A stretch of DNA of 64,000 nt, from positions 23,541 to 87,540 of the forward strand of contig JBAQFZ010000008.1 in assembly GCA_049287525.1 (NCBI GenBank), in the 5' to 3' direction. Shown here piece by piece: positions 5,386-29,476 of the stretch. The translations under genes were made by a program, and so were the position numbers. Origin of the DNA: Halobacteriota archaeon (GTDB taxonomy: Archaea > Halobacteriota > Syntropharchaeia > Alkanophagales > Methanospirareceae). Position 1 is the stretch's first letter, and every line of letters begins with the position of its first letter. Below the pieces are notes generated by a model. It made no database searches and was not told the origin of the DNA. It saw only the letters and a list, made by a program, of their open reading frames with translations.

Positions 5386-5391
5386 AATCTC

Positions 5392-5700: not shown

Positions 5701-5706
5701 TTTCCT

Positions 5707-8877: not shown

Positions 8878-8960
8878 GAGCTCTTCTCCCTATTTTTTAC
8901 ATCACACGCTGCGAGAAAGTTCATATTCATATAAATAGTATACATTTCACTATATATAAA

Positions 8961-9011
8961 AATAAGAGAGAATAAGAGAGAGGAATTAAAGCTACACTAC
9001 ACTACACTACA
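8961..9011. repeat. microsatellites in ppsA/argC intergenic: (ataagagaga)x2 and (ctaca)x4, with A/T-rich TATA-like boxes
   Basis: Direct reading gives aataagagagaataagagag ... ctacactacactacactaca. A TTTATATG-like TATA box lies ~26-35 nt upstream of the ppsA ATG on the minus strand. Confidence 0.5.
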
Positions 9012-9041
9012 ATGCAGCCAGGCATTTACGCAGCTCCGCAT

Positions 9042-10049: not shown

Positions 10050-10055
10050 TTGACT

Positions 10056-13703: not shown

Positions 13704-15752
13704 ATGAAGGGAAGAGCGATATTTATTGCAGCGATTTTAGTGGTATCTATTGTTGCTTTGACGGGTGTTGTGAGCAGCGTAGCAGCGACGGAAAAGATAG
13801 ATTTGTTCCTGTTAATAGATGGATCTGGTAGTGTCGCGGCGGAGGACTATATAAATCAAACGAGCGGCTATGCCGCGGCTATTGATAATGAATCGATTGT
13901 TCCACAGGACGGCTCTGTCTCGATTTGCGTGATTATGTTCGGCTTTAAGCCGGGTGGTGTGTATAATCCTCAACTTATGCCTTATAATGTATATAATTAC
14001 GCTAAGGTGATTGTTCCTTACACCACAATCACGAACGCAGCGGTGGCAAAAAGTGTTTCCGAAACGATAAGTAATACGAAGCAGCCGGGGGATGGGACAC
14101 CAATAGAAGCGGCATTCCATGTAGCGATTGAGGAGTTAAAGAAAGCAGTCAAAGAGGGTAAAATTGAACTGAATAAATCTACACAAAAGATAGATATATC
14201 CTCAGATGGACGCCCAAACATGATGCACTTACGGGACTTCTATGGCAAATTTAGAGATGAAAAAGACAAAGAAGCGGTATACAAAGCGTTTGATGCGAGA
14301 ACCGAAGCAATAGCGGCAGGATTTGACGAAATCAATGCGCTTGGTGTGGACCTCAAAGACACAACACGGTCTTATCCGTATAACCGTGAATTCCTGGAAG
14401 ATATGGTTTTGCCACAGCCTTGTGACACAGAGCCGCCAGGCTTTTTCATGGAGACGAGCAGGGCGGATTTTCCGAAGACATTAAAAGAGAAGATAAAAAT
14501 AGAATTACACCCATTTATCAGCGTCAATAAGAGTGTCAGTAAAATATTATGCAATCCCGGTGATGTACTGACCTATACGATAAATTATAGCAACACGAAT
14601 AACGTAAACCTGACAGAAGTCGTTTTAACCGACCCGATTCCTGCTACTACTACTACTTTAGTCTCAGGAAGCATATCAAATGGGGGGACGGTATCGTTGG
14701 ATGGCGTGATTACCTGGAACATAGGCGAGTTGCACGTAGGAAAAGCGGGCACGCAGTCGTTCCAGGTAAGGGTTCACGACCATCTCACAAACGGGACGAT
14801 AATCACGAATACCGCCACGATAGCGAGCAATGAAACAGGACCGGTCAGCGACTCGGTGAACACGACTGTTATATCTCATCCACATATCAGCATCACTAAA
14901 AGCGTCGGTGAAATATTATGCAATCCCGGTGACGTGCTGCACTATACGATAAATTATAGCAACACGAATAACGTAAACCTGACAGAAGTCGTTTTAACCG
15001 ACCCGATTCCTGCTACTACTACTTTAGTCTCAGGAAGCATATCAAATGGGGGGACGGTATCGTCGGATGGCGTGATTACCTGGAACATAGGCGAATTGCA
15101 CGTAGGAGAATCGGGCATGCAGTCGTTCCGGGCAAGGGTTCACGACTCCCTCGCAAACGGGACGATAATCACGAATACCGCCACGATAGCGAGCAATGAA
15201 ACAGGACCGGTCAGCGCCTCGGTGACCACGACTGTTATAGTGCCGAAAATTTTTGAACTATCAGCCTATAAGGCGGTTGATAAGATGTTTGCATCACCAA
15301 ACGAGACGCTCTGCTACCAGATACAATACAAAAATACCGGAACGGAGACGCTCACGCACACTGAGGTAAAAGATACGATACCAGAGAACACCACTTACAT
15401 AGCGGGAAGCATGGGTCTAAACGGTGAAGGTCTAACCGATGGAGCCGGTGATGACGCAGGAAGCTATTACGCAGGGAACAAGACGTTGATATGGGATATA
15501 GGTACATTGGAACCCGGTGAAGGCGGGGATGCGACCTTTAAAGTCACAATAAACGCATTTGTACCCGGAGGAACAATCATACGCAACACCGCTATCCTGA
15601 CAACTAATGAGACATTACCTATTAATCGGACGGTAATAACAAAGGTCAGACCGCCGATACTACTACCAGTGCTGACGTCAGTGGGTATCGCGGTCTTGAT
15701 CGGGCTGCTGAGTCTGGTTGCAATACGCGGTATGAGTGGAAGGCGAAGATAA
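13704..15752 (+). CDS. secreted vWA-domain + DUF11-repeat surface protein with C-terminal TM anchor
   Basis: Signal peptide; vWA MIDAS motif DLFLLIDGSGSV; two near-identical ~122-aa DUF11-type repeats (CNPGDVL.YTINYSNTNNVNLTEVVLTDPIPATTT); C-terminal PPILLP + TM + RRR. Confidence 0.7.
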   Translation: MKGRAIFIAAILVVSIVALTGVVSSVAATEKIDLFLLIDGSGSVAAEDYINQTSGYAAAIDNESIVPQDGSVSICVIMFGFKPGGVYNPQLMPYNVYNYAKVIVPYTTITNAAVAKSVSETISNTKQPGDGTPIEAAFHVAIEELKKAVKEGKIELNKSTQKIDISSDGRPNMMHLRDFYGKFRDEKDKEAVYKAFDARTEAIAAGFDEINALGVDLKDTTRSYPYNREFLEDMVLPQPCDTEPPGFFMETSRADFPKTLKEKIKIELHPFISVNKSVSKILCNPGDVLTYTINYSNTNNVNLTEVVLTDPIPATTTTLVSGSISNGGTVSLDGVITWNIGELHVGKAGTQSFQVRVHDHLTNGTIITNTATIASNETGPVSDSVNTTVISHPHISITKSVGEILCNPGDVLHYTINYSNTNNVNLTEVVLTDPIPATTTLVSGSISNGGTVSSDGVITWNIGELHVGESGMQSFRARVHDSLANGTIITNTATIASNETGPVSASVTTTVIVPKIFELSAYKAVDKMFASPNETLCYQIQYKNTGTETLTHTEVKDTIPENTTYIAGSMGLNGEGLTDGAGDDAGSYYAGNKTLIWDIGTLEPGEGGDATFKVTINAFVPGGTIIRNTAILTTNETLPINRTVITKVRPPILLPVLTSVGIAVLIGLLSLVAIRGMSGRRR

Positions 15753-15797
15753 ATCGTCTTCCCTTTTTGCTTTTTCTTTTAATTTTTTATAGAATTT

Positions 15798-16418
15798 ATG
15801 AGCGTGCAAGCAAAGGGGAAAGTGCGAAACGCACAGCGCAAGAAGAGGGTAGCGCAAAACACTGAGGGTAACGGTAAAAGCCATGCTAATTTATTAACCG
15901 CGGTATTGGAAAAAGCAAAAGAGAACGAGGAAGCGATAAAATACGTGGCGCGTTTCTTAGCTCTTTGTTTCGCGTTCTACATTGTCTATTATATCATAAT
16001 AGTTAGCGACACTATGGTGATGGCTAATATGAGGCACGTTACCACCACAATTTTGGGTGCTATCTTCTCTTTAGCCGGGCTGAAAGTAGTAGAGAGGGCT
16101 GATGTGTTATCCATCAATGGCTTCTCAATGGAGATAATAGATGAATGCACCGCAGTTTTCTCCGCTATCGTTTATTGCTCCTGCGTATTAGCATATCCCG
16201 CAACGCTGAAGCAGAAAAGTCTTGGTATCCTCTTCGGCGTGCCAAGCCTGTATGCGATAAATATCCTTCGCATTTTCCTATTGGCTCTTGTTGGCATGCG
16301 CAATCCCGATATGTTTAAATTTATGCATGTGTATCTCTGGCAGGCGTCTTTTATCATATTCGTGGTCGTGCTCTTTCTGATATGGCTAAAGATGGGGGTG
16401 ACAGATGGCGAAGGATAA
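15798..16418 (+). CDS. exosortase/archaeosortase-family membrane protein (short form)
   Basis: 206 aa with about 5-6 TM helices. IDECTAVFS resembles the exosortase active-site Cys motif, and AINILRIF matches the ANxxR(V/I) motif of the EpsH/archaeosortase family. Lys-rich N-terminus. Confidence 0.45.
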   Translation: MSVQAKGKVRNAQRKKRVAQNTEGNGKSHANLLTAVLEKAKENEEAIKYVARFLALCFAFYIVYYIIIVSDTMVMANMRHVTTTILGAIFSLAGLKVVERADVLSINGFSMEIIDECTAVFSAIVYCSCVLAYPATLKQKSLGILFGVPSLYAINILRIFLLALVGMRNPDMFKFMHVYLWQASFIIFVVVLFLIWLKMGVTDGEG

Positions 16419-17232: not shown

Positions 17233-18195
17233 TTGATTATTACGACATTAGACAGAGAGGGGGTAAAAATGGTAGAACGACTAACAGAATCGGGGAAGAT
17301 CTGGTATAATGGCAAGTTTGTGGATTGGAAAGACGCCACGGTGCACGTGCTCTCGCATGGTTTGCATTACGGGTCCGGTGTGTTCGAGGGGATAAGGTGC
17401 TATGCCACGGACAAGGGTTCGTTTATCTTCAGGCTAAAGGAACATGTGGACCGGATGTACCGGTCAGCGGAGTTGTACCAGTTGGAGATCCCGTATTCGA
17501 AGGCGGAGCTGACAGAAGCGATAAAAGGAACGATTCGTATAAACGAACTTGATGCGTGCTACATAAGGCCTATCGCGTTCTATGGTCTCCATCACTTAGG
17601 CGTGAATCCAGCCGGCTGCCCCGTGGATTGTGCAATTGCCGTATGGCGTTGGGGCGCTTATCTTGGTGCGGATGCGTTAGAGACCGGTATAAGATGTACA
17701 ATCTCTTCATGGCGTAGAATAGACCCCCATACATTGCCTGTCACGTCAAAGGCAACGGGGCACTATCTGAATTCGATGTTAGCAGTGCGCGATGCGAAGG
17801 AACGCGGATTTGATGAGGCGATAATGCTTGACAATAACGGATATGTGGCAGAAGGTCCTGGCGAGAATATATTCACAGTTATAAATTCAACGCTATACAC
17901 GCCCGGAGTAGAATCTTCTATTCTGCCTGGTATTACCCGGGCGTCTGTAATCGAGCTTGCACGTGATATGGGGTATGAGGTGGTAGAGAAGTCCATAACG
18001 AAGGAGGAGTTATTGTCTGCCGCGGAAGTTTTTTTCACGGGCACTGCGGCAGAGGTGTCGCCGATACGCGCGATAGACAATGTAACAATAGGAGCAGGTA
18101 AGCGAGGAGAAGTGACTGGCGCGATACAAAAGAAGTTCTTTGACGTGGTGAATGCGAAAGAGGCACGATATATGAACTGGCTGGTACGGGTGTAA
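17233..18195 (+). CDS. ilvE: branched-chain amino acid aminotransferase
   Basis: 320 aa, class IV aminotransferase fold; EGIRCY and catalytic lysine region. Confidence 0.85.
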   Translation: MIITTLDREGVKMVERLTESGKIWYNGKFVDWKDATVHVLSHGLHYGSGVFEGIRCYATDKGSFIFRLKEHVDRMYRSAELYQLEIPYSKAELTEAIKGTIRINELDACYIRPIAFYGLHHLGVNPAGCPVDCAIAVWRWGAYLGADALETGIRCTISSWRRIDPHTLPVTSKATGHYLNSMLAVRDAKERGFDEAIMLDNNGYVAEGPGENIFTVINSTLYTPGVESSILPGITRASVIELARDMGYEVVEKSITKEELLSAAEVFFTGTAAEVSPIRAIDNVTIGAGKRGEVTGAIQKKFFDVVNAKEARYMNWLVRV

Positions 18196-18220
18196 AAGTC
18201 GTATTCGAATTCTTTTCCCG

Positions 18221-18354
18221 TATTTGTATAGCTACATAAAAAACCACAAGATTAACACAAGAAATTATAATTATTTTGGAATAAAGTAGCCAATAGTGTA
18301 CTGAAACTATGTTAATTTTATTCTTTTTCTCGTGAAAATCTGTGTTAATCTGTG
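18221..18354. mobile_element. MITE-like repeat copy 1 (short variant lacking the hairpin module)
   Basis: Shares gtatttgtatagctacataaaaaaccac[a/g]agat.cacaagattaacacaagaaatt... and the right inverted end tgtgttaatctgtg with the copies at 26.1, 29.6 and 43.6 kb. Confidence 0.6.
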
Positions 18355-18416
18355 TCTGTCTATAATTTATTTTCTCTTCTGTTTATTCAAAGACAATTAG
18401 CCAGCCGGATAAAACT

Positions 18417-19382
18417 TCAAACGATAACCTCCTCCCCCAATCTCGTGTCATCCAGCTCCTTAGTCCACCTGTTGAAATCCAGCCAGAGTATTACAGTAAT
18501 ACAGGTGAGGATAAGAAGATAAATGGCAACGACTATAAGCGTATCCAGCATTAACCGTTGATAAACTCTGTTTATCTCAGGTTTAAGCCCTTTTATATCA
18601 CCGAGCGCATTATCACGGTGTTTCTCATATAATTTCTCCGCGTGCTCATACGAATCCCGTGCTTTTATTATCTCCATAAATGCAGCGCCAAATAAGCTTG
18701 AAGAGGCGCTGCGGGCATTGTCAAGATACGACCTCGATGCCATTACATATTCTGATGCCCGTTCCATATCCCGTTTATACATCCGTTCATCACGTAGCGC
18801 CTCGAACTTCATCCGGCTTGCGTCACTGGGCATGCCACCCTCTCCGTATGAAGCCGAACTTATATACTCGTATTCTATCTTCACCTTTGTCACGTTCGTA
18901 TTGGTAGCCATGTCCTTGAAGTATCTTCCTTCGTCCCGGTAAAATCGCTTAAGTGCACGCTCGGCAAGCATTGGTATTCCATTCCTTTCCGCGGTGGCGT
19001 AGCTATTGAGTTTGATTATGGATGTGTTAATCGAATCAGCCATTTTTAGTGCTTCTTTATGGTCCGCGGGACTTTGACTCTCGCTTAACGGTGCCATCTT
19101 TTCAAACTTATCAACAATTGTGAGGAAGATATTTACCCACTCTTTTGTCGTATAGGTAACCTCTGAACCTTCCATACTCTGAATCACCGCCTGTACCTCT
19201 GCCTTTGCAAGTGATAACTCGTCATAGTCGTCAAATACCCCCGACTTGTTCAGCGATATTATATTCTGAAGCAGGTCCCTCTTCAGCGCGTCTGAGCCTG
19301 CCGCAGGTGTGGCGAAAGCCAGGAGGTTGATTATAATTATGGTTATAATCAGGACTAAGGCAATCAAACTTCGCGAGTTCAT
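18417..19382 (-). CDS. secreted/membrane-anchored helical protein (signal peptide + C-terminal TM)
   Basis: 321 aa; N-terminal hydrophobic signal and C-terminal TM segment LIVVAIYLLILTCITVILWL. Divergently transcribed from the FtsZ-like operon. Confidence 0.5.
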   Translation of the reverse strand: MNSRSLIALVLIITIIIINLLAFATPAAGSDALKRDLLQNIISLNKSGVFDDYDELSLAKAEVQAVIQSMEGSEVTYTTKEWVNIFLTIVDKFEKMAPLSESQSPADHKEALKMADSINTSIIKLNSYATAERNGIPMLAERALKRFYRDEGRYFKDMATNTNVTKVKIEYEYISSASYGEGGMPSDASRMKFEALRDERMYKRDMERASEYVMASRSYLDNARSASSSLFGAAFMEIIKARDSYEHAEKLYEKHRDNALGDIKGLKPEINRVYQRLMLDTLIVVAIYLLILTCITVILWLDFNRWTKELDDTRLGEEVIV

Positions 19383-19541
19383 GAGTATGGTGTTGTAATA
19401 TTATACTTGGCTATACTATGTAGCAGGTGCAATAAAAAATCCCGTTACTTACATACAGGCAAAAGGCAAAAAGCGAGCGAATTATTTATAGCAGTTTCCT
19501 ACCATAATAGAACTACCATATAAATCCTTTAGCTGCACAAT

Positions 19542-20492
19542 ATGACTATGCGATACCTGCTTGTTGGACTGGGGAATGCCGGAATTGCAATTCTTAACGC
19601 TCTACTGGAGTACAAAGAGATAAAGAGTGCAAAGCCAAAGCCGGTTATTATCCTGCTACGGTCCGAGAGCGAGGGAGTGGATAAGATAGCAACTGCGTTA
19701 GAGCGAGCAAAAGGCGGGGGCGTTGATTTCGCGCTTCTCTTCACGGGATTTAGCAATAGTAATAATAGTAATATATCAGCAGCGGAAATATTGAATGATC
19801 AAAAGATAAAGACGCTTTTTATTGGCATTCTGCCTGCGAATAGAAGAGAAGAGCAGGAGGAGATAGTAAGTGTATATTCGTCACTGGAGAAGCTAAAAGC
19901 GCATGTGAAATCATTTATAATCGTGGATAACCAGCGTATAGCGCACCATCCAAACTACAAGGAGTTTTATCCACGGTATAACAGGTATATCGCCTCGTGC
20001 CTCGTGGACATCCTCGCAGGGATTCGTGTAAAGGACAGGGCAAACGTGTCCGGGGCGCAATCTGCCCTCCTTCCCATAGAAGAAGTGGTAAAGGCACTGT
20101 CTTTCAATGCTGAGCCGGGCTATGTGGCGGTATCGCGCAGTTCAGAACTTACAAAGGGCTTGATGGGTTATATCGTCCCGTTTACAAGGCACAAACCGCT
20201 TGACCTCAGAACGCTGCTACGGGTTTCGCTGGAGAAGTTCAGCGTTTCTGATGCACCGATAGTCTGTGATAAGAGCGTTTGTTTCCTGCGTGTGCCGGAT
20301 TATTATGTCAGGAGTGGGGGTGTGGATAAGAAATTAATAGAGGAATTCTTGCTCACGTATTCAAAAGAGAGCCATCTCGCGGTATCCGTTACGGGGCGAA
20401 ACACGGTGGCGATCACTAATTTGTTCGTATATAAATTTGAGCAACTGGGTAGATTACGAGATATAAGGGGAGTTGCGCATGAGGCGATATAG
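19542..20492 (+). CDS. divergent FtsZ/tubulin-like protein with degenerate GTP-binding T4 loop
   Basis: YLLVGLGNAGIAILNALLEY aligns to the FtsZ T1 region IKVIGVGGGGNNAV. DFALLFTGFSNSNNSNISAAEIL aligns to the T4 region (GGGTGTG replaced). KTLFIGILPANRREE is cf. VTKPFxFEG. SFIIVDNQRIA is cf. FtsZ TIPNDKLL. Confidence 0.5.
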   Translation: MTMRYLLVGLGNAGIAILNALLEYKEIKSAKPKPVIILLRSESEGVDKIATALERAKGGGVDFALLFTGFSNSNNSNISAAEILNDQKIKTLFIGILPANRREEQEEIVSVYSSLEKLKAHVKSFIIVDNQRIAHHPNYKEFYPRYNRYIASCLVDILAGIRVKDRANVSGAQSALLPIEEVVKALSFNAEPGYVAVSRSSELTKGLMGYIVPFTRHKPLDLRTLLRVSLEKFSVSDAPIVCDKSVCFLRVPDYYVRSGGVDKKLIEEFLLTYSKESHLAVSVTGRNTVAITNLFVYKFEQLGRLRDIRGVAHEAI

Positions 20493-21810
20493 TGTAGTAC
20501 TTGCTCCGCTGGTGCTTTTAGGTTTGATTGCACTTGGTATCTTCATCTTCTTCAAGGGCGGGTCGGACCTTGCATTAATAACTATTATCTTTATCTTTAT
20601 CCCTGCAATGATAGGAGCGGCATTTATGGTTCGATACCTCGTTACGGTACGGAAAGGAAGTCTAAGGGAGAAGGTGATGGTGCGGGACGTGGAGGGTGTA
20701 GCGAACCGGTATGTAGAACAGATGCGGATTCTACACGATTTCGAGGATAAATACGGTATAAGCACGAGCGAATTCCGGCGCGAGCTGGAGAAGGTAAAAG
20801 AAGGTTTAGCCGAACTGGGCTGTGAGGTAAATGGAAGGGTAAGGATGGACCGTGTGAAGCAAAGGAGCGTGGTCTTTGCCGATGTTGAATGGGTGACTAA
20901 GATGTTCGATGGTATAAAAGAGCGGCATGAAGTCGTACTTTATTCCCGGATGATAGAAAGAAGCAGGGCTTATCTTGATGGGCTAAGAGCACTTGAAGAC
21001 GCAGGCTATGATGGTATCCGGGGCAACATAGAGCAGATAGAATCAAAGATAGTGGAGGACGAGAACCTGAAGAAGGATTCACTTGAACTCTCCATCTTCA
21101 TGAATGAGCTGGATTCACGCATAGAAGAAGCGCTGAGAACCTGTTTGCATGATGCACACGGTTTAGAGGCGGAAGGTCGGGAGACGGCAAATGCGGACAC
21201 CGCCCGAGTCAGGACTGATATGAAGCTGGTCGAACATAGCATAGAGCGAGGAAACTACGAGAGCGCATCAAAAGTATTGAATAGCGTGATTGGGAGATTG
21301 AGCCGGATGCTGGCGGATGTGTTTGAACAATATAAGACAGACACGCTTGCGCTGACTGCCGTAGTTGTTGACATGCTGGGAAAGGAAGAAGAAGAGGTGG
21401 AGGTGGCAGTGGTGGATAGGGAGAAGGATAAGAATATGAATAAGAATAAGAAAGAGATAGAAGCGCTGCGGGAACACATCGAGAAGTGCATGACGCCTTC
21501 AGAGATGCGAAAGCTGCGGGCGTATGGAGATGCGCTCATATTAAAAGCAATAACCGCTTTAGAGGCGACTTATAATAAGATATTCACGATTGAAGAGCAA
21601 ATACTGCGGGAGAACCCGGCAACGGAATTGTATCCCGTGGAATACTGGACCAGGGATAAGATAGGCGAGATAGAGGAACTCAGGTCAATGCCAAAATCGG
21701 AAGTCAGTGATTTTGTTCGCAGATACCGTCTCTTAGCATCCGATGCTATTTCGCGGTTGGTGTATGATTCCGAGAGCTTAAGAAGGCTATCTCGCAAGCA
21801 GCAGGCATAA
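20479..21810 (+). CDS. membrane-anchored coiled-coil protein (2 N-terminal TM helices + long helical cytoplasmic domain)
   Basis: An ATG at 20479 has a GGGGAG 7 nt upstream (the track uses TTG at 20473). It overlaps the stop of the upstream gene. The sequence is E/R/K-rich with heptad periodicity. Confidence 0.55.
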   Translation: MRRYSVVLAPLVLLGLIALGIFIFFKGGSDLALITIIFIFIPAMIGAAFMVRYLVTVRKGSLREKVMVRDVEGVANRYVEQMRILHDFEDKYGISTSEFRRELEKVKEGLAELGCEVNGRVRMDRVKQRSVVFADVEWVTKMFDGIKERHEVVLYSRMIERSRAYLDGLRALEDAGYDGIRGNIEQIESKIVEDENLKKDSLELSIFMNELDSRIEEALRTCLHDAHGLEAEGRETANADTARVRTDMKLVEHSIERGNYESASKVLNSVIGRLSRMLADVFEQYKTDTLALTAVVVDMLGKEEEEVEVAVVDREKDKNMNKNKKEIEALREHIEKCMTPSEMRKLRAYGDALILKAITALEATYNKIFTIEEQILRENPATELYPVEYWTRDKIGEIEELRSMPKSEVSDFVRRYRLLASDAISRLVYDSESLRRLSRKQQA

Positions 21811-21874
21811 TTTATTTTATATCACATACGCGGAAACTTAATAACTACCAGGAATAAATATCTTTAAAGAGGTC

Positions 21875-22315
21875 TTGAGTATGGAACCGTTGAGTATAGG
21901 AATACTTATTGTTGCCCTGTTGATCGCCGTGGAAGTGGTATTGATGCTGGTAAAATTAAAGGTGGACAAGATGCTGCTTCTTATGCCCGCCACCGGTGTG
22001 ATATGCGCCACTATCGCGTTTGTATTGAATGAATACCGTGATAAAATACCGTTAGCTGTGTCTGCCGCTCTTGTTGTGATATACGTTATGCTTGCCGTGG
22101 GCGTAGTATTGGGACTACTTGGAATTTTGGTATGGCTAAAAGGGGAGCAGGAAGCGAAGAAGATAATCAGCACGGCAAAAGGAATAGATAGCGCAGTTGC
22201 CCGAATTGACAGCGATATGAAGGGAAGCGAGCTGGAATTAGAGCATTTCGACGACGAGATGAGCGCGATAAAGACGAAGATGGCGGATTACGAGACGAAA
22301 GATAAGGAGGTCTGA
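21875..22315 (+). CDS. small membrane protein (3 TM) with C-terminal coiled-coil
   Basis: 146 aa; hydrophobic segments followed by KGSELELEHFDDEMSAIKTKMADYE. Confidence 0.5.
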   Translation: MSMEPLSIGILIVALLIAVEVVLMLVKLKVDKMLLLMPATGVICATIAFVLNEYRDKIPLAVSAALVVIYVMLAVGVVLGLLGILVWLKGEQEAKKIISTAKGIDSAVARIDSDMKGSELELEHFDDEMSAIKTKMADYETKDKEV

Positions 22316-22326
22316 TCGCGAGAGAG

Positions 22327-25017
22327 ATGGAGAAGGGTGAGGATACGGTAAACCGGATAGTAATAGGAATCGGTGGGCAGGGAGGCAGTATTGTAAACAA
22401 CCTGTTAAGGATGCTCAAGACAAAGACCGGGAAGGTGCCGAAGAATGAGGAGTTTTTGATTATTGATACCGATCAGGCATCAGCAAATGCGTGCACCGAA
22501 GTAGAAGAGCGAAGGAAGATAATACTGAGCAGACCCGATACGATATTGATGAAGAACGCGAACAGATGGCTGCCGGACCCATATCTTGCGGCTGCCGGCG
22601 CGGGATGCGGACAGCACCGGATATATGGCAGGGCGATGTATAACGTGCATCGCGAGCGGATATTCAGTGCGATAGGAACAGCCGCATCGGAATTGCGTAA
22701 CCGGACTGGTGGTAAGGACTTCTTCATTCTGATGGTCTGCGCATTGGGCGGGGGGACCGGTTCGAGTATGCTGCTCGACGTGGCGATAGACATCCGGGAT
22801 TGGATTTCAAAACAGTTTGGGTCAGAACCGGTGATGTTCGGAATAGGTATTCTACCTTCGAGCAAGGAGTCCGTGCTCCCGACTGGTAATGCCCTCGGTG
22901 CACTGAAGGAGCTCCATTTCCTCATGTCACATACCGGAGACATCATAATAGACGACAAGAATTATTCTAATCCATTCAAGCTGTTCTTCCTTTTAGGTCG
23001 TGACCTTCAGGGGCAGAACCGAGATGAGGAACTGGAAAGGGCGATACCAAGGTTCCTTCTCGACCTTGGTTTCTTGCCTGGCGGGACGGTAGAGACGAAG
23101 GGCAAGTGGCTTGACCTGAACGACCTGCAGAACCGTGCAAGGGGCTACGAGAACCGGTTTGATTCCCTGGGTTATTATGAATGCGTATTCCCCAGCGATA
23201 AATTGTTCCTTTATTATGACATCGAGGATGAGATACCGGTAGTCAGGCAGCGACTGGTAGAGATAGAGGCGCGAACCGCGGATATACGCGATAAAATAGT
23301 CTTGCAGCGAGGCGAACTGGAACGGTTTGAGGGCAGGATAAGAGATGCTCAGCGAGAGATAGATAGATACGAATCGGGGGGTGGACTGCTGTCGCACGTA
23401 AATGAGGGCGCAATCCGAGATGCGAAGGCGAAACTGGAAAGAGCGAAGAAGAAGTTATCGGATTTGAAAGAAGGCGTGTTCAACCTTGAGATACGGGTAA
23501 GTGATGCGGAAGAGGAGAAGCGGGTGATGGAGCGTAAGTTAGAACGGCTTGAGGCGTTAAAGAACAAGCTGCTCCGGGAGATAACCACGCCGGCGAATAC
23601 GCGAAGTTATCACCAGATAGAGCTTTCGGAGGATGAAGTGCGCGGCTTAAAGAAGAGCAGGGAAGACCTGAAGAATCTATCGTTCTTAGAGATTATGAAT
23701 AAACTGGATAGGGCGGAGGAATATTTCCGATGGACGCATTCGCCGATAAATGAAGGGGACGTGATATTCAATCCAATGGTAAACTACCGACATGCCATCG
23801 AGAATACCATGACCTCGAAATATATAGGCATCCTGAACGATTACGGATTCCTGACGGTAGATGCGCAGGGTAATGTGGTGAACGAGGAGGAGAAGTTCGG
23901 GCATTTCATCGCGGTATTGAGCACGAGGGCGGATAATTTCGATGATGGTCGGCTTGGCGGTGGCGCGTTTAAGAGCATGGTGACGGCACGATTCGCAAAA
24001 GATGCAGACGTGTTAAAATTGGATGCGCCGGCGCGTGCACACAGTTTCGCTATATACACGCTTATGATTGGACTGCAACCCTGGGCGTCAGGTCCAGGAC
24101 TACCGCCGCGACTGCGTGAATTTGAATGGATAGAGAAGGCGTATAAAGAGAGTGAGTTCTCTAAGCTACAAAGACATCATTCATTCTTTTACGGGACTAA
24201 TAAGCCGTTCTCTATGATTACTGATATACCGTACACACCGGGTGCCGAGGATAAGAATAGGGATATGGTGACGAACTACTGGCAGAATTACGAGATAATA
24301 GAGCCCGGGGTCTTATGGGATAATGTGCCTATCATGCTTGCGCAATGCCTGAAGATGTTTGATGATCTCTTAGTCGGGCTGGATATAGCAAGCGATATAA
24401 AGAACGTGCGGGTTCCGGACCCGGAGAGCTACTCAATCGCGAACCTCACGATGCTGGTTCACGAACTGGAAACCGCAGGTAGAAGTATGGAGAAGGTGAA
24501 TCAATGGACTAAAGAAGCAGGACGTGGGTTTACACATCTGAAAGACGAACTTGACGACTTGATAGTCCGGTTAAAGGGTACGGATGCCGGGCGACCTGCG
24601 GAAGACAAAGCGGGTAAGATGCTCCGGATGATTGACGATTCTAAGCGGGACATGGAGATATTGCTGGACCGGATTGATGATATGTCAAACAGCTTCAGTA
24701 ACGAGATAGAAGCATTCGTGGAAGGGGCAAAGGACTTTATCGGTAAGATTCCCTCGGGTGAGACCACATCAAGTGTGATAAGGCAGATAACAAAAGCGGA
24801 GACGGAGATTTCAAGGATACGAGAGAGCAGTATGAAAGCGGCGAAAGGGATAAGAGAGATGAGCAGTCCTCTGGCAACGCTGTTAGCAGCATTAAAAGAG
24901 CTGAAGGGAATAGTGGAACCAGAAGGAGAAGTCGAGGCGGGAGTAATGGAAGTGCATGGCGGTAAGGAGATGGAACTGCCTGATTTATCTACGGACATAA
25001 GGAGGAAAGAAGATTGA
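22327..25017 (+). CDS. FtsZ/tubulin-superfamily GTPase fused to ~600-aa coiled-coil extension
   Basis: T1 is IVIGIGGQGGSIVN. T2-like is LIIDTDQASA (cf. FtsZ NTDAQAL). T3 is AAGAGCGQH. T4 is the canonical ALGGGTGSS. IIIDDKNYSNP is cf. FtsZ IPNDKL. A long E/R/K-rich helical region follows. Confidence 0.7.
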   Translation: MEKGEDTVNRIVIGIGGQGGSIVNNLLRMLKTKTGKVPKNEEFLIIDTDQASANACTEVEERRKIILSRPDTILMKNANRWLPDPYLAAAGAGCGQHRIYGRAMYNVHRERIFSAIGTAASELRNRTGGKDFFILMVCALGGGTGSSMLLDVAIDIRDWISKQFGSEPVMFGIGILPSSKESVLPTGNALGALKELHFLMSHTGDIIIDDKNYSNPFKLFFLLGRDLQGQNRDEELERAIPRFLLDLGFLPGGTVETKGKWLDLNDLQNRARGYENRFDSLGYYECVFPSDKLFLYYDIEDEIPVVRQRLVEIEARTADIRDKIVLQRGELERFEGRIRDAQREIDRYESGGGLLSHVNEGAIRDAKAKLERAKKKLSDLKEGVFNLEIRVSDAEEEKRVMERKLERLEALKNKLLREITTPANTRSYHQIELSEDEVRGLKKSREDLKNLSFLEIMNKLDRAEEYFRWTHSPINEGDVIFNPMVNYRHAIENTMTSKYIGILNDYGFLTVDAQGNVVNEEEKFGHFIAVLSTRADNFDDGRLGGGAFKSMVTARFAKDADVLKLDAPARAHSFAIYTLMIGLQPWASGPGLPPRLREFEWIEKAYKESEFSKLQRHHSFFYGTNKPFSMITDIPYTPGAEDKNRDMVTNYWQNYEIIEPGVLWDNVPIMLAQCLKMFDDLLVGLDIASDIKNVRVPDPESYSIANLTMLVHELETAGRSMEKVNQWTKEAGRGFTHLKDELDDLIVRLKGTDAGRPAEDKAGKMLRMIDDSKRDMEILLDRIDDMSNSFSNEIEAFVEGAKDFIGKIPSGETTSSVIRQITKAETEISRIRESSMKAAKGIREMSSPLATLLAALKELKGIVEPEGEVEAGVMEVHGGKEMELPDLSTDIRRKED

Positions 25018-26096
25018 GGCGTATATTATCTTATAGCTCGCTTGCCGTTCTGGCACCTGTACTTGTACTTGTAGTTCTGTTTTCATGCGTGGGAATGAGT
25101 ATTGCTGCTGCTGCGGTTCAGGACGTGCTGAAGCTGAACGAAGGGCAGTCGTATGTCCGCAATTTAGAGCCGAGCAGGGTAGCGAGAATTAGCTATGACG
25201 CGTTTTTGAATAGCAATCAATTTGAAGGGGATACGCTTGAATTTCATATCTTCGTGGATAAGGTAGAGAAGGCACCCATTTTAGATGATTATGTCTTAAA
25301 ACTGGAGACAAATCTGGAGAATCCCGAATGGAAATTCGGCGATGACCTCTATCACTCTGCCGAGGTGATTGTATGGGAGGGCGAAGAAGCGCACACGCGC
25401 ATGGTTCCCGAGATTATACTATCTGGTGAGGTTCCCGCACCGATAATAACCATAAAAGAGCCGGGGTTCAACTACGATATTGATGGTATAGGGCAGGATA
25501 AGGTATATGTCAAATTAACTGTCGGGACGGTAAAGGAAAAGGAGGGGGCGACATTGAAGACCATCATCCAGAAACTGGAGCCGACAATGACGTTCTTCTC
25601 CACGAATGAGGGGATACAGAGCGCGAAGAGCGAGATGGATGAGAACCTGGAAGTGGCAAAAGGCAAGATTGGGGAGACGGAATTAGGAAAGGATATAGAA
25701 GAGCTCTACAAAAATGGGCATCCGGGTTGGGCATCTAAATTATCAACCGATTATAAGGCGCTATCGGTAGTGGCAGAGCCACCGCCAATTATGCTTTATG
25801 CCCTCGCCGCGATGATACTCGGGTTGATATTAGGTGCGGGATTCGTGTATGTGTATGTCTCGCGAGGCGGCGGCAAAGGTGTGGACGTGAGTGAGATTTC
25901 GTCAGAGCTGGATGATACTTCAGGTAGAATAGCAGAGAAGTCGGGTGCAATCAATGCGATTTCAACGAGGTTTGCGCGCAGCGCAGATGAAGAGCAGAGG
26001 GGCGCGGCGAGGGAGTTGCTAAAGATAAGAGCGAGTTTGAATGAGCTCGCGAATGAACTGAGGGCAATTGCAGATAGGATAAGGGGTTCGAGATAA
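25014..26096 (+). CDS. signal-peptide protein with ~230-aa extracellular domain, one TM and C-terminal cytoplasmic coiled-coil
   Basis: A TTG start overlaps the stop of the upstream gene (tTGA), with GGAGG 8 nt upstream. A TM helix (LYALAAMILGLILGAGFVYVYV) is followed by a helical tail. Confidence 0.55.
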   Translation: MRRILSYSSLAVLAPVLVLVVLFSCVGMSIAAAAVQDVLKLNEGQSYVRNLEPSRVARISYDAFLNSNQFEGDTLEFHIFVDKVEKAPILDDYVLKLETNLENPEWKFGDDLYHSAEVIVWEGEEAHTRMVPEIILSGEVPAPIITIKEPGFNYDIDGIGQDKVYVKLTVGTVKEKEGATLKTIIQKLEPTMTFFSTNEGIQSAKSEMDENLEVAKGKIGETELGKDIEELYKNGHPGWASKLSTDYKALSVVAEPPPIMLYALAAMILGLILGAGFVYVYVSRGGGKGVDVSEISSELDDTSGRIAEKSGAINAISTRFARSADEEQRGAARELLKIRASLNELANELRAIADRIRGSR

Positions 26097-27190: not shown

Positions 27191-29476
27191 ATGGAAACAA
27201 AAAAGAGAGGAGGAACGATAACAGGTATTGCTCTGGTAGCGATTATGGTCGCTTCAGTTATGCTCGCAATGGTCGCGAGCACCGCAGCGTACAGCACAGG
27301 CGGAAAATACAATATCATTAACAACTCAACAACACCACCTGCACAACAAGTACTGACAGGACAGGATCTGAAATTCATAAAGGGTACTGATGCTCTTGAG
27401 TGGACATCGGCACCGACAGTAATGCAGTATGGATCTAATGGTAACCAAGAACATACGTATCCATCGGCAGTGGGAGACGGTGGGGACTTTTACATCGACA
27501 ACGTGGACTGGGGTACGTCAGGTACATTTTATGTGAACGGTGGTGCGACCGTAAGTGCTGCCTACTGCGCACAGCTTTCTGTCAGTGACCCAAAAATACC
27601 GCTGCAGCTAAAAGTAGGTGATAAGATAGTGACGTCACTTGCCAAGGGTACGCCAGGATTTCACACAGATGTTGGAGGTAGAAATCTGTTCCCCGAGGAT
27701 GGTGTAGACCTCGTGATTATGGGTCCCAACGGGCAGATAACAACAAAGAACGGCCAGAATTTTAAAGGCATAAATGTGAGTACATTGACCGATTATACAA
27801 GTGTGAACTTTATTAACACCACAGGCTGGGACGTAGGGCATTACACCTTCCAGGTGAAGACCAAACCGGAAAACGCATGTGGCCTGGATACACAGAGCAC
27901 ACTGCGGGAGATGAACATAATAAAAGCTGCGGTAACAATAACAGCGGAGCCGACAGAAGTAGCGGAACTCACAACCGTGAAACTCACAGTAACTGGTGTT
28001 GCCGGTACGCCGATAAATGTACTAGAAGACACTTTAAGTCCGCATGCTTATTTCCCTGCAGGGCTTAATGACAACCAGGGACCAAAGAATAACAATTTCA
28101 CTGATACAATAGACAGTGACGGCACGCGGACCTACGCAGTGGAGTTCAACGATACCGGTGCATACACAATTAAAGTGACGGATTTAAACGATCTATCAGG
28201 AGATACATATGACACCGTTGACATTACCGTTACAGAGAAGGGAGTTACCTTTGACGTGCCAAGCACAGTAGTTATCGGGCAGCGGTTTACGATAAAAGGG
28301 ACTGCAAATACAGGCAATATGGTTACGGTTGCCGTGGATGACGAGGTGGTGTTGAAACTGAATAATATCGTAATAGACGAGAACAACGAATTCTCGGAGG
28401 AGATAGATACAAGCGCAGATGCAGCACCCGGGGCATTCAAGCTTCCAGGTTCTGTGAGGTTGAAGGCGTACATTGACTATCCAGGGGGCACTGGTCCGGT
28501 ACTCCAAGGCATAACAGACGATGGCTCGTTTGCGATATTAATGACAAAAGGCGAATTAACGGCTGAACTGTCAACAAAAAGCGTAGCGAAGGGCGATGAT
28601 TTCACAATCATCGGTAAGGCAAAAGGCTCAAAGAACGTGAATATATTGATAGTCGCACCAAAGGGTTTCAGTGGTTCAAACATAGAAACAAACGGTAAGG
28701 AGATGTATTACACATCAACGTCTGTCACAACTACCGATGATAGTTTCTACAAGAAGATCACCGTGAACGATGACGTGAACTCGGGCAAATATCTCGTGAT
28801 GATACTCAGCGCGGGAAGCGACGACAAATGGGGAAAGAGCGGTTACGATACACTTTATAACCCAAGTAAGCCAACGGATACTAATACCGCTTTAGGTCAG
28901 TATACATTAAGCACCAGGACACAGGAAGGGATGTTGGAGATAGTAAAAGATATGAGTGCTTTAAGCGATGACCTCCTGTGGATAGGGCTCGTAAACGTGG
29001 AATCGCCGTATGTGATTCTTAACCCAATAGCAGAGGTGAACATTGGAGAACCTATGGAAGTAACAGGAACTACAAACAGAAAGGATGGATATACCATAGT
29101 TGTCACAGCTAAAGGACCGACAGAGCTAACTCCGGCGACCGTACCGGTACATAACAGTACGTTCAACGCAACGTTAGACACTTCAGATGCTAAGGTAGGC
29201 GTGTACGTAGTGACGGCAGACGATGGTGATGGTAATACAGATACAGAGCAGGTGAGCATAGGAGGAGCAGCAGTACCGGCTGAGACGCCACTAACATCGC
29301 CAGCAGCAGAAACACCAATGCCAACAGCAGAAGCACCAACGCCAGCAGCAGAAACACCAATGCCAACAGAAGAAGCACCAACACCAACACCAAAACCAGT
29401 ACCAGGATTCGTAGGTGTGTTCGCCATTGCAGGCTTGTTAGCGGTTGCCTACCTATTACTGAGGAGAAGGAAGTAG
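27191..29476 (+). CDS. PGF-CTERM surface (S-layer-like) glycoprotein
   Basis: Signal peptide; 700-aa beta-rich ectodomain; Thr/Pro-rich linker AETPMPTAEAPTPAAETPMPTEEAPTPTPKP; PGF motif + TM + RRRK at the C-terminus (archaeosortase A sorting signal). Confidence 0.8.
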   Translation: METKKRGGTITGIALVAIMVASVMLAMVASTAAYSTGGKYNIINNSTTPPAQQVLTGQDLKFIKGTDALEWTSAPTVMQYGSNGNQEHTYPSAVGDGGDFYIDNVDWGTSGTFYVNGGATVSAAYCAQLSVSDPKIPLQLKVGDKIVTSLAKGTPGFHTDVGGRNLFPEDGVDLVIMGPNGQITTKNGQNFKGINVSTLTDYTSVNFINTTGWDVGHYTFQVKTKPENACGLDTQSTLREMNIIKAAVTITAEPTEVAELTTVKLTVTGVAGTPINVLEDTLSPHAYFPAGLNDNQGPKNNNFTDTIDSDGTRTYAVEFNDTGAYTIKVTDLNDLSGDTYDTVDITVTEKGVTFDVPSTVVIGQRFTIKGTANTGNMVTVAVDDEVVLKLNNIVIDENNEFSEEIDTSADAAPGAFKLPGSVRLKAYIDYPGGTGPVLQGITDDGSFAILMTKGELTAELSTKSVAKGDDFTIIGKAKGSKNVNILIVAPKGFSGSNIETNGKEMYYTSTSVTTTDDSFYKKITVNDDVNSGKYLVMILSAGSDDKWGKSGYDTLYNPSKPTDTNTALGQYTLSTRTQEGMLEIVKDMSALSDDLLWIGLVNVESPYVILNPIAEVNIGEPMEVTGTTNRKDGYTIVVTAKGPTELTPATVPVHNSTFNATLDTSDAKVGVYVVTADDGDGNTDTEQVSIGGAAVPAETPLTSPAAETPMPTAEAPTPAAETPMPTEEAPTPTPKPVPGFVGVFAIAGLLAVAYLLLRRRK

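Follow-up and report, generated by a model that had tools for sequence, protein, structure and literature searches.

An ANME-1 archaeal variant of FtsZl1, a system predicted to remodel membranes, with a tubulin-superfamily GTPase, membrane proteins and a degenerate tubulin

Comparison of genes and gene order identified a cluster in the genome of a methane-oxidising ANME-1 (Methanophagales) archaeon as a variant of FtsZl1, a system for which membrane remodelling has been predicted, and not as an entirely new kind of system. The cluster lies in a 64,000-nucleotide stretch of DNA, here called the window. An earlier note on this DNA had described five genes (A-E) whose arrangement it could not match to a described system; its suggestion of a link to FtsZl-1 proved correct. 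We found no description of this exact gene set in the literature that we searched. By its distribution among genomes, C-D-E is a conserved autonomous core, next to which A-B forms a separate module together with U and, in most cases, V. The features of the locus are as follows.

18417..19382, minus strand: U (open reading frame and topology script)
19383..19541, no strand: AT-rich stretch of 159 bp between U and A; from its sequence, the presumed site of promoters for U and for A-B
19542..20492, plus strand: A, 316 aa
20479..21810, plus strand: B, alternative TTG start at 20473, 445 aa from 20473
21811..21880, plus strand: B-C spacer with TATA-like element TTTTATAT
21881..22315, plus strand: C, 146 aa from TTG 21875 (open reading frame and topology script)
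22327..25017, plus strand: D, 896 aa
25014..26096, plus strand: E, 360 aa, TTG start

The open reading frame listing of the window contained A-E on the plus strand with the positions and lengths reported previously. The A and B genes overlap, as had been described, by 14 nt if B begins at ATG 20479 or by 20 nt if it begins at TTG 20473; the ATG, which is preceded by GGGGAG, is the more likely start. Shine-Dalgarno-like sequences are present at both the C/D and the D/E junctions: C and D are separated by 11 nt, not the 12 nt given previously, with AAGGAGG upstream of D, whereas the TTG start of E, as originally stated, overlaps the D stop codon (TTGA, 4 nt), with AAGGAGG 8 nt upstream of E. C probably starts at ATG 21881 because its orthologs begin with MEP or MDP.

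The proposal that the five genes form a single coupled operon did not hold. An AT-rich spacing of 64 nt containing the TATA-like element separates B from C without coupling between them, and C-D-E is autonomous in many ANME-1 genomes. The spacer is a candidate internal promoter of C-D-E: of the 37 loci examined, full as well as C-D-E-only, most had TATA-like elements at a distance of 45-70 nt upstream of C. The conserved cluster is also larger than five genes, as the divergent gene U (here on the minus strand) accompanies A-B throughout and a seventh gene, V, is usual elsewhere. Scanning the window for further tubulin-family open reading frames identified none besides A and D. The flanks consist of housekeeping genes and lack ftsA, sepF and min, in agreement with the earlier note, and a downstream AAA_18 gene is common to divergent lineages. 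PGF-CTERM surface proteins are also encoded within the window.

D matched the Pfam family Tubulin_2 (PF13809) with 82.5 bits, above the family threshold, and an ANME-1 ortholog of D (GI 268325165) is present in the founding alignment of FtsZl1 (Makarova & Koonin 2010, PMC2875224). D scored below the gathering score of PF00091 (Tubulin) and far from the NCBIfam FtsZ cut-off. On these sequence grounds D is a true FtsZl1 member and, as had been claimed, an FtsZ/tubulin-superfamily GTPase. The following features were assigned within D, all on the plus strand.

22348..23193, residues 8-289: GTPase domain through H7-T7-H8-S7 (invariant columns, motif alignment, secondary structure)
Residues 14-19: T1, GIGGQG (motif alignment)
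22747-22767, residues 141-147: T4, GGGTGSS (motif alignment)
P177, E181 and N188: T5/T6 (motif alignment)
23107-23127, residues 261-267: T7-like WLDLNDL (motif alignment)
23194..23586, residues 290-420: antiparallel coiled-coil hairpin inserted in the tubulin fold
23587..24303, residues 421-659: alpha/beta domain with additional helices; completes the tubulin C-terminal domain
24304..24924, residues 660-866: C-terminal long-helix bundle (topology script, secondary structure)

A disordered tail (residues 867-896) follows the helix bundle. The T1, T4 and T5/T6 residues were invariant across the family alignment. WLDLNDL/WLDFADI, which was assigned as T7 by motif similarity and by its position in the AF2 model, was kept in 14 of the 16 D-family sequences, being divergent in P0076 and absent from P0077. 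Alignment and model together indicate that D has a complete two-domain tubulin/FtsZ fold with intact nucleotide-binding loops and a T7-like acidic loop. Mean identity between D and its orthologs was 80%, whereas U, A, B, C and E from these genomes reached 57-63%. Within ANME-1 the GTPase and T7 regions were the most conserved (91-95% identical) and the C-terminal helix bundle less so (66%), a pattern that suggests polymer-like constraint. About 40 species-representative genomes of ANME-1 carry D, with identities of 73-89% that indicate vertical inheritance, and the context of the cluster likewise appears to be chromosomal and vertically inherited.

The description of A as a divergent FtsZ-like protein was supported by both profile and structural searches. 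A reached 24 bits on PF00091, short of the Pfam cut-off, and came nowhere near the NCBIfam FtsZ cut-off; its profile matched solely FtsZ/CetZ chains in the PDB, the best at 4e-6. The AF2 model of A (pLDDT 86.5, pTM 0.87) gave TubZ, CetZ2, CetZ and CetZ1 (TM 0.74 to CetZ1) as the top full-length Foldseek matches, and TubZ and PhuZ were among the structural matches of both A and D. When aligned with intact relatives, A kept a T1-like GxGxAG, but the T2/T3 segment and the T7 acidic motif were missing and FTGFSNSNNSN stood in place of the GGGTGSG box. These comparisons indicate that A has a full tubulin/FtsZ fold that has lost its nucleotide-binding signatures and is likely a pseudo-GTPase. The A clade is rare, with 37 representatives in 1.84e9 proteins, and its longer members are intact, with a G-box and T7 of their own. 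A and D had been called paralogs. Their common superfamily was confirmed, but close paralogy was not: the A-D profile alignment was confined to the S4-H6 core, and the two proteins appear to be very distant.

Transmembrane (TM) and heptad assignments for the remaining proteins came from a crude hydropathy/heptad script rather than a trained predictor. The TM helices previously attributed to B, C and E were found in each; the long coiled-coils also attributed to them fit D and, in C and E, the tails, but less so B and the bulk of E. C is predicted to be a small multi-pass membrane protein. The scan placed its TM peaks at residues 8-26 and 66-84 (numbered from TTG 21875), a weaker hydrophobic stretch at about 34-56 was read by eye outside the scan peaks as a third segment, and the C-terminal ~60 aa form a charged heptad-like tail. 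Wherever a locus offers enough sequence, C immediately precedes D, and its profile weakly matched positional equivalents of shared architecture in L050, L006 and L048. E is a predicted type-I membrane protein comprising a signal peptide with an AxA-type site, a conserved non-coiled ectodomain of about 225 aa ending in GHPGWA, a TM helix (259-277) and a cytoplasmic heptad-like tail of about 70 aa. E homologs lie 3' of D in ANME-1, Syntrophoarchaeum and loci L003, L004 and L005 (24-29% identity), and one is inverted in L006; all are annotated as hypothetical, none has a Pfam domain, and a PDB search with E returned no match. The likeness between the coiled-coil tails of C and E and the D hairpin is only compositional.

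In B, two N-terminal TM helices precede a charged, helical domain of about 390 aa that is predicted to be cytoplasmic, and the script detected just two short heptad-like stretches in the protein. Its homologs are limited to ANME-1 and Syntrophoarchaeum, and searches of Pfam, the PDB and PADLOC gave nothing beyond coiled-coil noise. U, divergently transcribed from A, is a predicted type-I membrane protein with an N-terminal signal/TM segment (6-24), a helical ectodomain of about 250 aa, a second TM helix (281-299) and a short cytoplasmic tail with the conserved sequence RWxxELDDTRLGEE; it had no match in Pfam or the PDB. U accompanies A-B in all full loci, including that of Syntrophoarchaeum (45% identity), and its profile matched a protein beside an intact A-like tubulin in L055 (E 2e-11). 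V, which is not in this window, is in most relatives a secreted multi-Ig protein with Ig/fn3-like repeats.

The same gene order recurred in dozens of species-level genomes, placing the cluster far beyond chance. All ANME-1 loci of sufficient sequence contained C-D-E, which makes C and E obligate neighbours of D, and D-E recurred in three distant loci, from Altiarchaeales and two other lineages, as well as in L059. The earlier question of whether all five genes co-occur elsewhere had a divided answer: divergent U followed by A-B-C-D-E, usually with V, was found in about 17 ANME-1 species and in Syntrophoarchaeum, whereas about 11 ANME-1 species, from at least two clades, had C-D-E without A-B-U at the locus. 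This distribution suggests that A-B-U is dispensable or separable. It would also fit two unrelated neighbours, C-D-E being an FtsZl1 system and U, V, A and B a separate tubulin system in which A does not act on D. The TATA-like element in the B-C spacer, the remote kinship of A and D, and the possibility that intact members of the A clade polymerise alone are consistent with such an arrangement. We nevertheless consider it rather unlikely. The order and orientation of U, A-B and C-D-E are retained from ANME-1 to Syntrophoarchaeum, whose D is 65% identical; C-D-E followed A in every A locus examined; and a looser linkage reappears in L055, which encodes U-like and V-like proteins, an intact A-like tubulin, a T2 tubulin, a C-like protein and a D-type protein. 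Intact small (T2) tubulins adjoin D in other lineages too (L003, L005, L050 and L055), and A lacks the motifs required of an autonomous GTP-dependent polymer.

We favour, with moderate confidence, the reading that the locus encodes a cytoskeleton-like, membrane-anchored archaeal variant of the FtsZl1 system in which the A-B-U-V module modulates or localises a D filament. Sequence features and structural models suggest how such a system might function. D would polymerise head-to-tail in a GTP-dependent manner on the cytoplasmic face of the membrane, where the tails of C and E would tether it, probably by helix-helix contacts with the D hairpin or C-terminal bundle, and the E ectodomain would couple the filament to the cell envelope. 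The accessory proteins A, B, U and V would modulate or localise the filament; A, for example, might bind to or cap one of its ends and not hydrolyse GTP. In the cell, the system most likely remodels the membrane or envelope or provides a scaffold related to shape or the septum; DNA segregation and defence are less likely. Membrane remodelling was predicted for FtsZl1 by Makarova & Koonin 2010 (PMC2875224).

The large conserved ectodomains of E and U and the Ig/fn3-like repeats of V could instead belong to a secretion-like machine that assembles envelope or surface structures, with D serving as a GTPase switch or static scaffold and the ectodomains and V acting outside the cell. Surface proteins near several loci, namely PGF-CTERM proteins in this window and at L006 and beta-helix proteins at L018 and L051, are in keeping with this idea, and secretion roles have been proposed for other vWA-linked archaeal membrane clusters (Makarova et al. 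2015, PMC5898192). However, the neighbouring surface proteins show no synteny across loci, the conserved cluster contains no secretion ATPase, translocon or sortase component, and D retains the full set of elements that a polymerising tubulin should have, the T7-like loop among them, and shows polymer-like sequence conservation; we therefore regard this explanation as doubtful. Anti-virus defence or abortive infection built on a tubulin-like NTPase is very improbable. Uncharacterised multi-gene NTPase clusters often prove to be defence systems, and D gave weak PADLOC matches to JetC, LmuB and DndD, but these were confined to coiled-coil segments (E 1e-2 to 1e-5), none of six proteins matched a PADLOC defence family, and high conservation, near-universal vertical presence in ANME-1 and housekeeping neighbours are the opposite of patchy, fast-evolving defence islands. 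Least credible is plasmid, virus or mobile-element DNA segregation of the TubZ/PhuZ type, which the structural matches of A and D and the related large FtsZ-like genes on Borg elements (10.1101/2024.11.05.622173) would favour, as a small DNA-binding partner is absent, every partner is a membrane protein, the cluster is flanked by chromosomal housekeeping genes whose synteny is conserved, inheritance appears vertical, and 2.9 million viral contigs contained no D relatives.

Comparison with known systems bore out the earlier conclusion that the locus is not canonical FtsZ, CetZ or TubZRC. Paired tubulins (alpha/beta-tubulin, BtubA/B, Asgard AtubA/B, archaeal FtsZ1/FtsZ2) differ from A and D, which are very distant and three-fold different in size; alpha-tubulin still binds GTP, whereas A has no nucleotide-binding signature, and C-D-E occurs without A in many genomes. 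TubZRC and PhuZ share the tubulin-superfamily fold, but the present locus has no TubR-like DNA-binding adaptor or centromere, its partners are membrane proteins, and its context is chromosomal, with no viral homologs. CetZ genes typically stand alone, outside membrane-protein operons. Compared with CetZ, an archaeal cell-shape protein (PDB 3zid, 4b45, 4b46), A lacks the GTP-binding signature and T7 loop, and D, which is 2.5 times longer, additionally carries the coiled-coil hairpin and helical bundle.

Large FtsZ/tubulin-like proteins of Borgs, Methanoperedens and haloarchaea, for which a role in membrane remodelling or division has been suggested (10.1101/2021.07.10.451761; 10.1101/2024.11.05.622173), resemble D in that their match to CetZ2 (4b45) is split between the two ends of the protein by a long coiled-coil. 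With a length of about 1,057 aa, these proteins are encoded on extrachromosomal elements or within FtsZl1 operons of the classical type, and they are at best ~25-27% identical to D (L051); neither the C-D-E triad nor a pseudo-tubulin partner has been reported for them. The classical archaeal FtsZl1 type was seen in Methanoperedens (L051).

Published FtsZl1 operons differ from the present locus, which has no vWA protein, membrane-associated P-loop GTPase, A1, OmpA/MotB or Ser/Thr kinase; function therefore transfers only loosely from those operons. The downstream partner here is the type-I membrane protein E, which has no known domain, and a second tubulin-fold protein (A) is linked together with B, U and V. 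FtsZl1 proteins were reported as not alignable beyond H5 (Makarova & Koonin 2010, Biol Direct 5:33, PMC2875224), whereas a T7-like loop and C-terminal tubulin domain are identifiable in the D subfamily. The likeness lies in D itself, with its N-terminal FtsZ-like GTPase domain, extended coiled-coil and helical C-terminus; in the small membrane protein directly upstream of D, at the 'A2' position of published archaeal operons; and in the membrane association of the partners in both.

In this window, from an ANME-1 (Methanophagales) archaeon, five co-directional open reading frames (ORFs), A to E, were found by ORF calling exactly as an earlier note on this DNA had described them, and a further gene, U, diverges from A. 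The topologies listed for B, C, E and U are predictions from a simple hydropathy and heptad script plus alignments (for B, from the script).

18417–19382, minus strand: U, signal or transmembrane (TM) segment, ~250-aa helical ectodomain, TM helix, short conserved cytoplasmic tail
19542–20492, plus strand: A, 316 aa, tubulin-fold protein
20479–21810, plus strand: B, two N-terminal TM helices, ~390-aa charged helical domain
21881–22315, plus strand: C, TM peaks at residues 8–26 and 66–84, third weaker hydrophobic segment by eye, ~60-aa heptad-like tail
22327–25017, plus strand: D, 896 aa, tubulin-superfamily GTPase homolog
25014–26096, plus strand: E, 360 aa, signal peptide (AxA-type sites), ~225-aa conserved ectodomain, one TM helix, ~70-aa heptad-like cytoplasmic tail

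The overlap of A and B proposed in that note was borne out, and its extent is 14 nt if B starts at the more plausible ATG at 20479, seven nucleotides past GGGGAG. A short gap does separate C from D, although it measures 11 nt rather than 12 nt; AAGGAGG lies ahead of D. E begins with a TTG that overlaps the D stop codon (TTGA), again with AAGGAGG upstream, in agreement with the GGAGG reported previously. However, to call the five genes one translationally coupled operon was an overstatement. The 64-nt AT-rich spacer between B and C holds a TATA-like sequence, TTTTATAT, and the arrangement is better described as a C-D-E core with an adjacent A-B/U module. A TATA-like element (GTATTTAAATACTC, AAGTATATAAA or CATTAAAATACTC) was found 45–70 nt 5′ of C in most of 37 loci, including loci with the full cluster and loci with C-D-E only. 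The element within 21811–21880 is likely to be an internal promoter, and its recurrence fits a separate transcription unit for C-D-E. A bacterial sigma-70 and terminator scan was uninformative in this archaeon.

The window genes flanking the cluster are housekeeping genes (ilvE-type aminotransferase, PEP synthase, ASD, PGI, AAA_18 kinase, TatD and eIF-6), and, as noted before, ftsA, sepF and min are not among them. Profiles of A and D did not match any other ORF in the window. Downstream of the cluster, 27191–29476 encodes a surface protein of 761 aa that carries the PGF-CTERM sorting signal. Large surface proteins are also encoded near D-type genes at four homologous loci, L006 (PGF-CTERM), L003, L018 and L051, and they are not orthologous between loci.

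Sequence comparison places D in the FtsZ-like 1 (FtsZl1) family of Makarova and Koonin 2010 (PMC2875224; also PMC9871819), which corresponds to Pfam Tubulin_2 (PF13809). D matched this model over residues 11–238 with 82.5 bits (gathering score 27), and among its 77 homologs PF13809 is annotated wherever precomputed annotation exists. An NCBI MAG protein labelled ‘tubulin-like domain-containing protein’ shows 100% identity to D. The founding FtsZl1 alignment (Additional file 2) contains GI 268325165 (‘uncultured archaeon’), the N-terminus of which, TVNRVAIGIGGQGSSIVNNILRTLKHKTG...KAPRNEEFLIIDTDP, matches the ANME-1 D orthologs of loci L033 and L049 almost residue for residue. This near-identity settles the family membership of D, which was thus already on record. 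The earlier suggestion of a possible relation to FtsZ-like families was right but understated, since the 2010 family already held an ANME-1 sequence. At L033 (3992–6469) the D ortholog is broken into ORFs of 368 and 441 aa, which may reflect a frameshift, a pseudogene or a MAG assembly error. Two other contigs carrying ANME-1-type D genes, L034 (MAXT01000297.1, binned as ‘Desulfuromonadales bacterium’, 87% identity) and L013 (DYFG01000126.1, binned as ‘Nitrosotalea sp.’, 80% identity), are almost certainly mis-binned ANME-1 contigs.

The GTP-binding residues of D are conserved throughout a family alignment of 16 sequences with identities down to 26%. G141-G142-G143-T144-G145-S146 of the GTP-binding box GGGTGSS and the T1 glycines G14, G16, G17 and G19 are invariant, and P177, E181 and N188 (T5/T6 positions), D47, R98 and G101 are invariant or nearly so. 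An AF2 model of D (pLDDT 82, pTM 0.74), together with a heptad scan for the two helical regions, gave the following predicted architecture.

Residues ~9–232: Rossmann-like GTPase domain
After the GTPase domain: short helix, loop, helix 264–271, strand 278–287
Residues 290–420: antiparallel helical hairpin of 130 residues (helices 290–349 and 360–420)
Residues 421–659: alpha/beta domain
Residues 660–863: long-helix bundle, followed by a disordered tail

The hairpin and the helical bundle agree with the account of FtsZl1 proteins given in PMC2875224. Because the structural alignments of D span more residues than stand before the hairpin, the tubulin C-terminal domain must come after it. The modelled tubulin fold of D thus appears to be complete but split by the hairpin, and Foldseek concurs. 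For Borg and haloarchaeal homologs, a 2024 preprint on Borgs likewise described a split match in qualitative terms. Just ahead of helix 264–271 is the motif WLDLNDL (variants WLDFADI and WLDMADL), in which D263 and D266 are at least 90% conserved. As it is similar to NxDxxD, the T7 consensus of FtsZ, and to IDFNDI, which intact A relatives have, we infer from motif and position in the model, rather than from residue-level superposition, that it is the T7-like ‘synergy’ loop of D. In 2010 the T6-H7 region and C-terminal domain of FtsZl1 could not be identified (PMC2875224). When the N-terminal 295 aa of D were compared with PDB sequences, the match spanned S4-H6 only and did not place T7. The mean identity of D orthologs to the window protein is 80% versus 57–63% for U, A, B, C and E, and the GTPase and T7 regions are 91–95% identical within ANME-1. 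Such an excess is the pattern expected for a self-assembling polymer subunit.

The second tubulin homolog, A, is of a different kind. Among PDB sequences its family profile matched chains of FtsZ and CetZ alone (best E 4e-6), and Foldseek aligned the whole of its AF2 model (pLDDT 86.5, pTM 0.87) with TubZ, CetZ2, CetZ, CetZ1 (TM 0.74), FtsZ and tubulins. These full-length matches identify A, as modelled, as a genuine two-domain tubulin/FtsZ-fold protein. Structure prediction of A and D, the check that the earlier note had proposed, therefore supported the tubulin/FtsZ fold for both. A keeps a T1-like GxGxAG, and a stretch of about 90 residues covering T2/T3 is gone. At the G-box the window protein has FTGFSNSNNSN (consensus FSGLxxSxxT), and the T7 region is variable, of low confidence in the model and devoid of conserved acidic residues. 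The Syntrophoarchaeum ortholog has a closer G-box, AGLGGEIGGT. Among 1.84 billion representatives, scanned exhaustively with HMMER, only 37 relatives of A were returned at E ≤ 0.001. Many of the longer ones (370–540 aa) retain GGGTGSG and an IDxxDI T7 motif, whereas the short forms nearest A have neither. This loss indicates that, within a rare tubulin clade, A is a reduced branch and is probably nucleotide-dead. A profile–profile comparison of A with D aligned 58 columns of the S4-H6 core only, so the two are not close paralogs.

The remaining cluster proteins are predicted membrane proteins, and the earlier reading of folds and membrane association was largely right. B, C, E and U matched nothing in Pfam or NCBIfam, profiles of B, E and U gave only coiled-coil or designed-helix noise among PDB sequences, and a PADLOC search of the cluster proteins returned coiled-coil matches only. 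The E ectodomain ends in an almost invariant GHPGWA in the alignment, and the E profile retrieved only ANME-1-type ‘hypothetical proteins’. The top match, P0178 (JGI), has 546 aa compared with about 350 aa for the usual E; fusion or duplication could explain this, as could a gene-calling artefact on its 2.3-kb contig. Extra small genes overlap the 3′ end of E at L001 (13608–14498, 296 aa; Syntrophoarchaeum) and L004 (13774–14310, 178 aa), with no counterpart in ANME-1.

To what extent these genes are inherited together was assessed with 60 gathered loci, onto the first 54 of which the six window proteins were mapped. The C-D-E order is kept in every ANME-1 locus with sufficient sequence. Co-occurrence of the five genes, a check proposed in the earlier note, holds for C-D-E in this sense but for A-B only in some loci. 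About 17 ANME-1 species representatives have the full arrangement, with U divergent from A-B-C-D-E, and so does Candidatus Syntrophoarchaeum (D 65% identical). In about 11 ANME-1 species, C-D-E is instead preceded by 3–9 kb of unrelated genes. Since these C-D-E-only loci fall into at least two separate D clades, U-A-B would have parted from, or been lost by, an ancestrally full cluster more than once. D-E follows a small multi-TM gene in Altiarchaeales (L003), in two metagenomic lineages (L004 and L005) and at L059; at L006, E is inverted. In almost every full locus, and at L055, U is followed by a seventh gene, V, which encodes ~805–846 aa with Ig/fn3-like repeats; the regions L032:2931–7195, L047:3595–6934 and L001:4042–7402 can be compared with 17233–19382 of the window. 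No V homolog was found anywhere in the window, where the ilvE-type aminotransferase adjoins U instead, which looks like lineage-specific loss or relocation. The strongest rival to a joint function is that U/V/A/B and C-D-E are merely adjacent systems. The C-D-E-only loci are what such independence would produce; on the other side, C-D-E follows A in every A locus that was looked up. We consider mere adjacency possible but unlikely.

Small tubulins also occur beside FtsZl1 outside ANME-1. One such clade, here called T2 (421–461 aa, mutual E 1e-28 to 1e-69), has an intact GGG(T/S)GxG, and its genes adjoin D-type FtsZl1 genes in four non-ANME lineages.

L003:3372–4757, minus strand: T2 gene
L005:7156–8499, minus strand: T2 gene
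L050:4002–5279, minus strand: T2 gene (Desulfurococcaceae)
L055:6680–7945, minus strand: T2 gene

A single 10-kb contig, L055 (ENA ERZ27271186 k141_1857050, 2255–10472), has three tubulin-superfamily genes: an intact A-like gene (404 aa), the T2 gene (421 aa) and a D-type gene truncated by the end of the contig. Genes resembling U, V and C are present on it as well. L004 is a fifth, more distant case, in which a vWA gene and a 476-aa tubulin (5000–6430) are followed by three more genes and then D and E; the vWA gene ties this subfamily to the association with vWA in the literature. In these gene neighbourhoods FtsZl1 repeatedly occurs beside a small tubulin, and the small tubulin of the window is a degenerate one. 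We found no mention of this link in the 2010 paper (PMC2875224) or in the other literature searched.

We propose the following working model. D appears to have all that a polymerising tubulin-superfamily GTPase needs and is inferred to form a GTP-dependent filament. Its constant partners C and E, membrane proteins with charged helical cytoplasmic tails, would hold this filament at the inner face of the membrane, and the E ectodomain would reach the envelope. A has no canonical GTP binding or activation, its translation is coupled to that of membrane protein B, and it is accompanied by U and V, both of which have large predicted extracellular parts; A-B-U(-V) can therefore be read as an accessory or localising module of the filament, with A perhaps an end-binding or capping subunit. 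Membrane remodelling (the 2010 proposal), envelope or shape scaffolding, and septation are candidate cellular roles. In its most specific form, A and D, and perhaps also B and U, would make up a composite cytoskeleton. Its membrane-tethered FtsZl1 filaments, linked to the envelope via E and U (and V in relatives), would be capped, nucleated or decorated along their sides by nucleotide-dead A. We consider this form possible but unlikely.

Other functions were judged less probable. A role in envelope assembly or in a secretion-like process, with D not dynamic, would make use of the same ectodomains of E and U, while the conservation of D is of the kind expected for a polymer; we regard this role as rather improbable. 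A defence system would be very improbable, as PADLOC families were not matched and the genes are inherited vertically with high conservation. DNA segregation, the partition role of some tubulin homologs such as TubZ, is very unlikely given that there is no DNA-binding partner, that the context is chromosomal and syntenic, and that viral homologs were not found.

If confirmed, a membrane-anchored D filament would be a new class of tubulin-family filament in the prokaryotic cytoskeleton; if not, the D system is a well-defined member of a known uncharacterised family. FtsZl1 is among the most divergent FtsZ/tubulin branches and has been purely bioinformatic since 2010; no FtsZl1 structure was found, nor any functional study in the literature searched. 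The apparently complete fold and T7-like loop of D make GTP-driven polymerisation a concrete prediction, and the smallest partner set, two membrane proteins, is reconstitutable. A, as a degenerate homolog, would be a rare prokaryotic pseudo-tubulin. The composite system, if real, would be a trans-envelope tubulin-based machine apart from FtsZ rings, CetZ, TubZ and microtubules, and the association of FtsZl1 with small tubulins, A-like or T2, would be an ancient and general archaeal design. ANME-1 archaea are uncultured and central to marine methane oxidation, and their cell biology is essentially unexplored. With C-D-E as a compact, highly conserved version of FtsZl1, the locus offers a tractable, well-conserved entry to an unstudied tubulin-superfamily branch in an ecologically important archaeon.

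Among known systems, canonical FtsZ is excluded by scores far below the cut-off of the FtsZ equivalog model (NCBIfam TIGR00065; D 14.6 bits, A 12 bits, cut-off 295.2), and tubulins sensu stricto (BtubAB, artubulin, Odin/Asgard tubulin) by scores under the PF00091 cut-off of 33 (D 31.3 bits, A 24.1 bits); neither protein matched FtsZ_C or Tubulin_C in the Pfam search. As the earlier note had anticipated, the locus is neither CetZ nor TubZRC. CetZ proteins are stand-alone, of ~350–400 aa and with intact GTP loops; the fold is similar, but A lacks T2/T3, the G-box and T7, and D differs in its length of 896 aa and its hairpin insertion. TubZRC systems have a TubR-like DNA-binding adaptor and centromeric repeats next to their tubulin gene; here the cluster proteins have no DNA-binding domain in Pfam or NCBIfam, B, C, E and U are predicted membrane proteins, the context is neither viral nor plasmid-like, and the D profile found nothing in viral contigs.

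The closest comparison is with the published FtsZl1 operon, in which a vWA protein or a diverged (membrane-associated) P-loop GTPase is encoded beside FtsZl1, further published partners being OmpA, a Ser-Thr kinase and A1-A2; neither vWA nor P-loop GTPase is next to D in the window. None of the six cluster proteins matched a VWA, GTPase, OmpA or kinase model in Pfam or NCBIfam, U, A, B, C and E contain no Walker A or MIDAS motif, and the one DxSxS in D is a chance match in a C-terminal helix. At 13704–16415 the gene of a secreted 682-aa protein with DUF1194 (vWA-clan) and DUF11 repeats precedes that of an exosortase/archaeosortase-like membrane protein; the two form a separate surface-protein sorting pair that is not syntenic with the cluster elsewhere. 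The DUF1194 protein was considered as the ‘missing’ vWA partner, being 2.7 kb upstream of U and 3.8 kb from A, and was dropped given the four unrelated genes between, the exosortase-like neighbour and the lack of synteny in other loci. The idea that E is a degenerate version of the membrane GTPase of published operons was likewise rejected, as E has no Walker A and its profile misses the GTPase of L051. Partners of the published type do occur in distant relatives, at L004 (vWA), L051 (TM plus Walker A) and L054 (vWA-like, Hsp70). The Methanoperedens locus (L051:7869–13927) is a classical archaeal FtsZl1 operon, with a TM protein, FtsZl1 (862 aa), a TM protein with Walker A (GPRKSGKT) and a 343-aa gene. 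C resembles ‘A2’ (e.g. MA2710), which is encoded immediately upstream of archaeal FtsZl1, in position, size class and membrane nature, and the C profile did not match the upstream TM protein of L051. No description of the locus was found in the literature on ANME-1, Syntrophoarchaeum or CetZ with tubulin/FtsZ. Relative to these systems, what appears to be new is the C-D-E operon variant, which has neither vWA nor P-loop GTPase, the split but complete tubulin fold and T7-like loop that the model suggests for D, and the linkage of FtsZl1 to small tubulin homologs, one of them degenerate.
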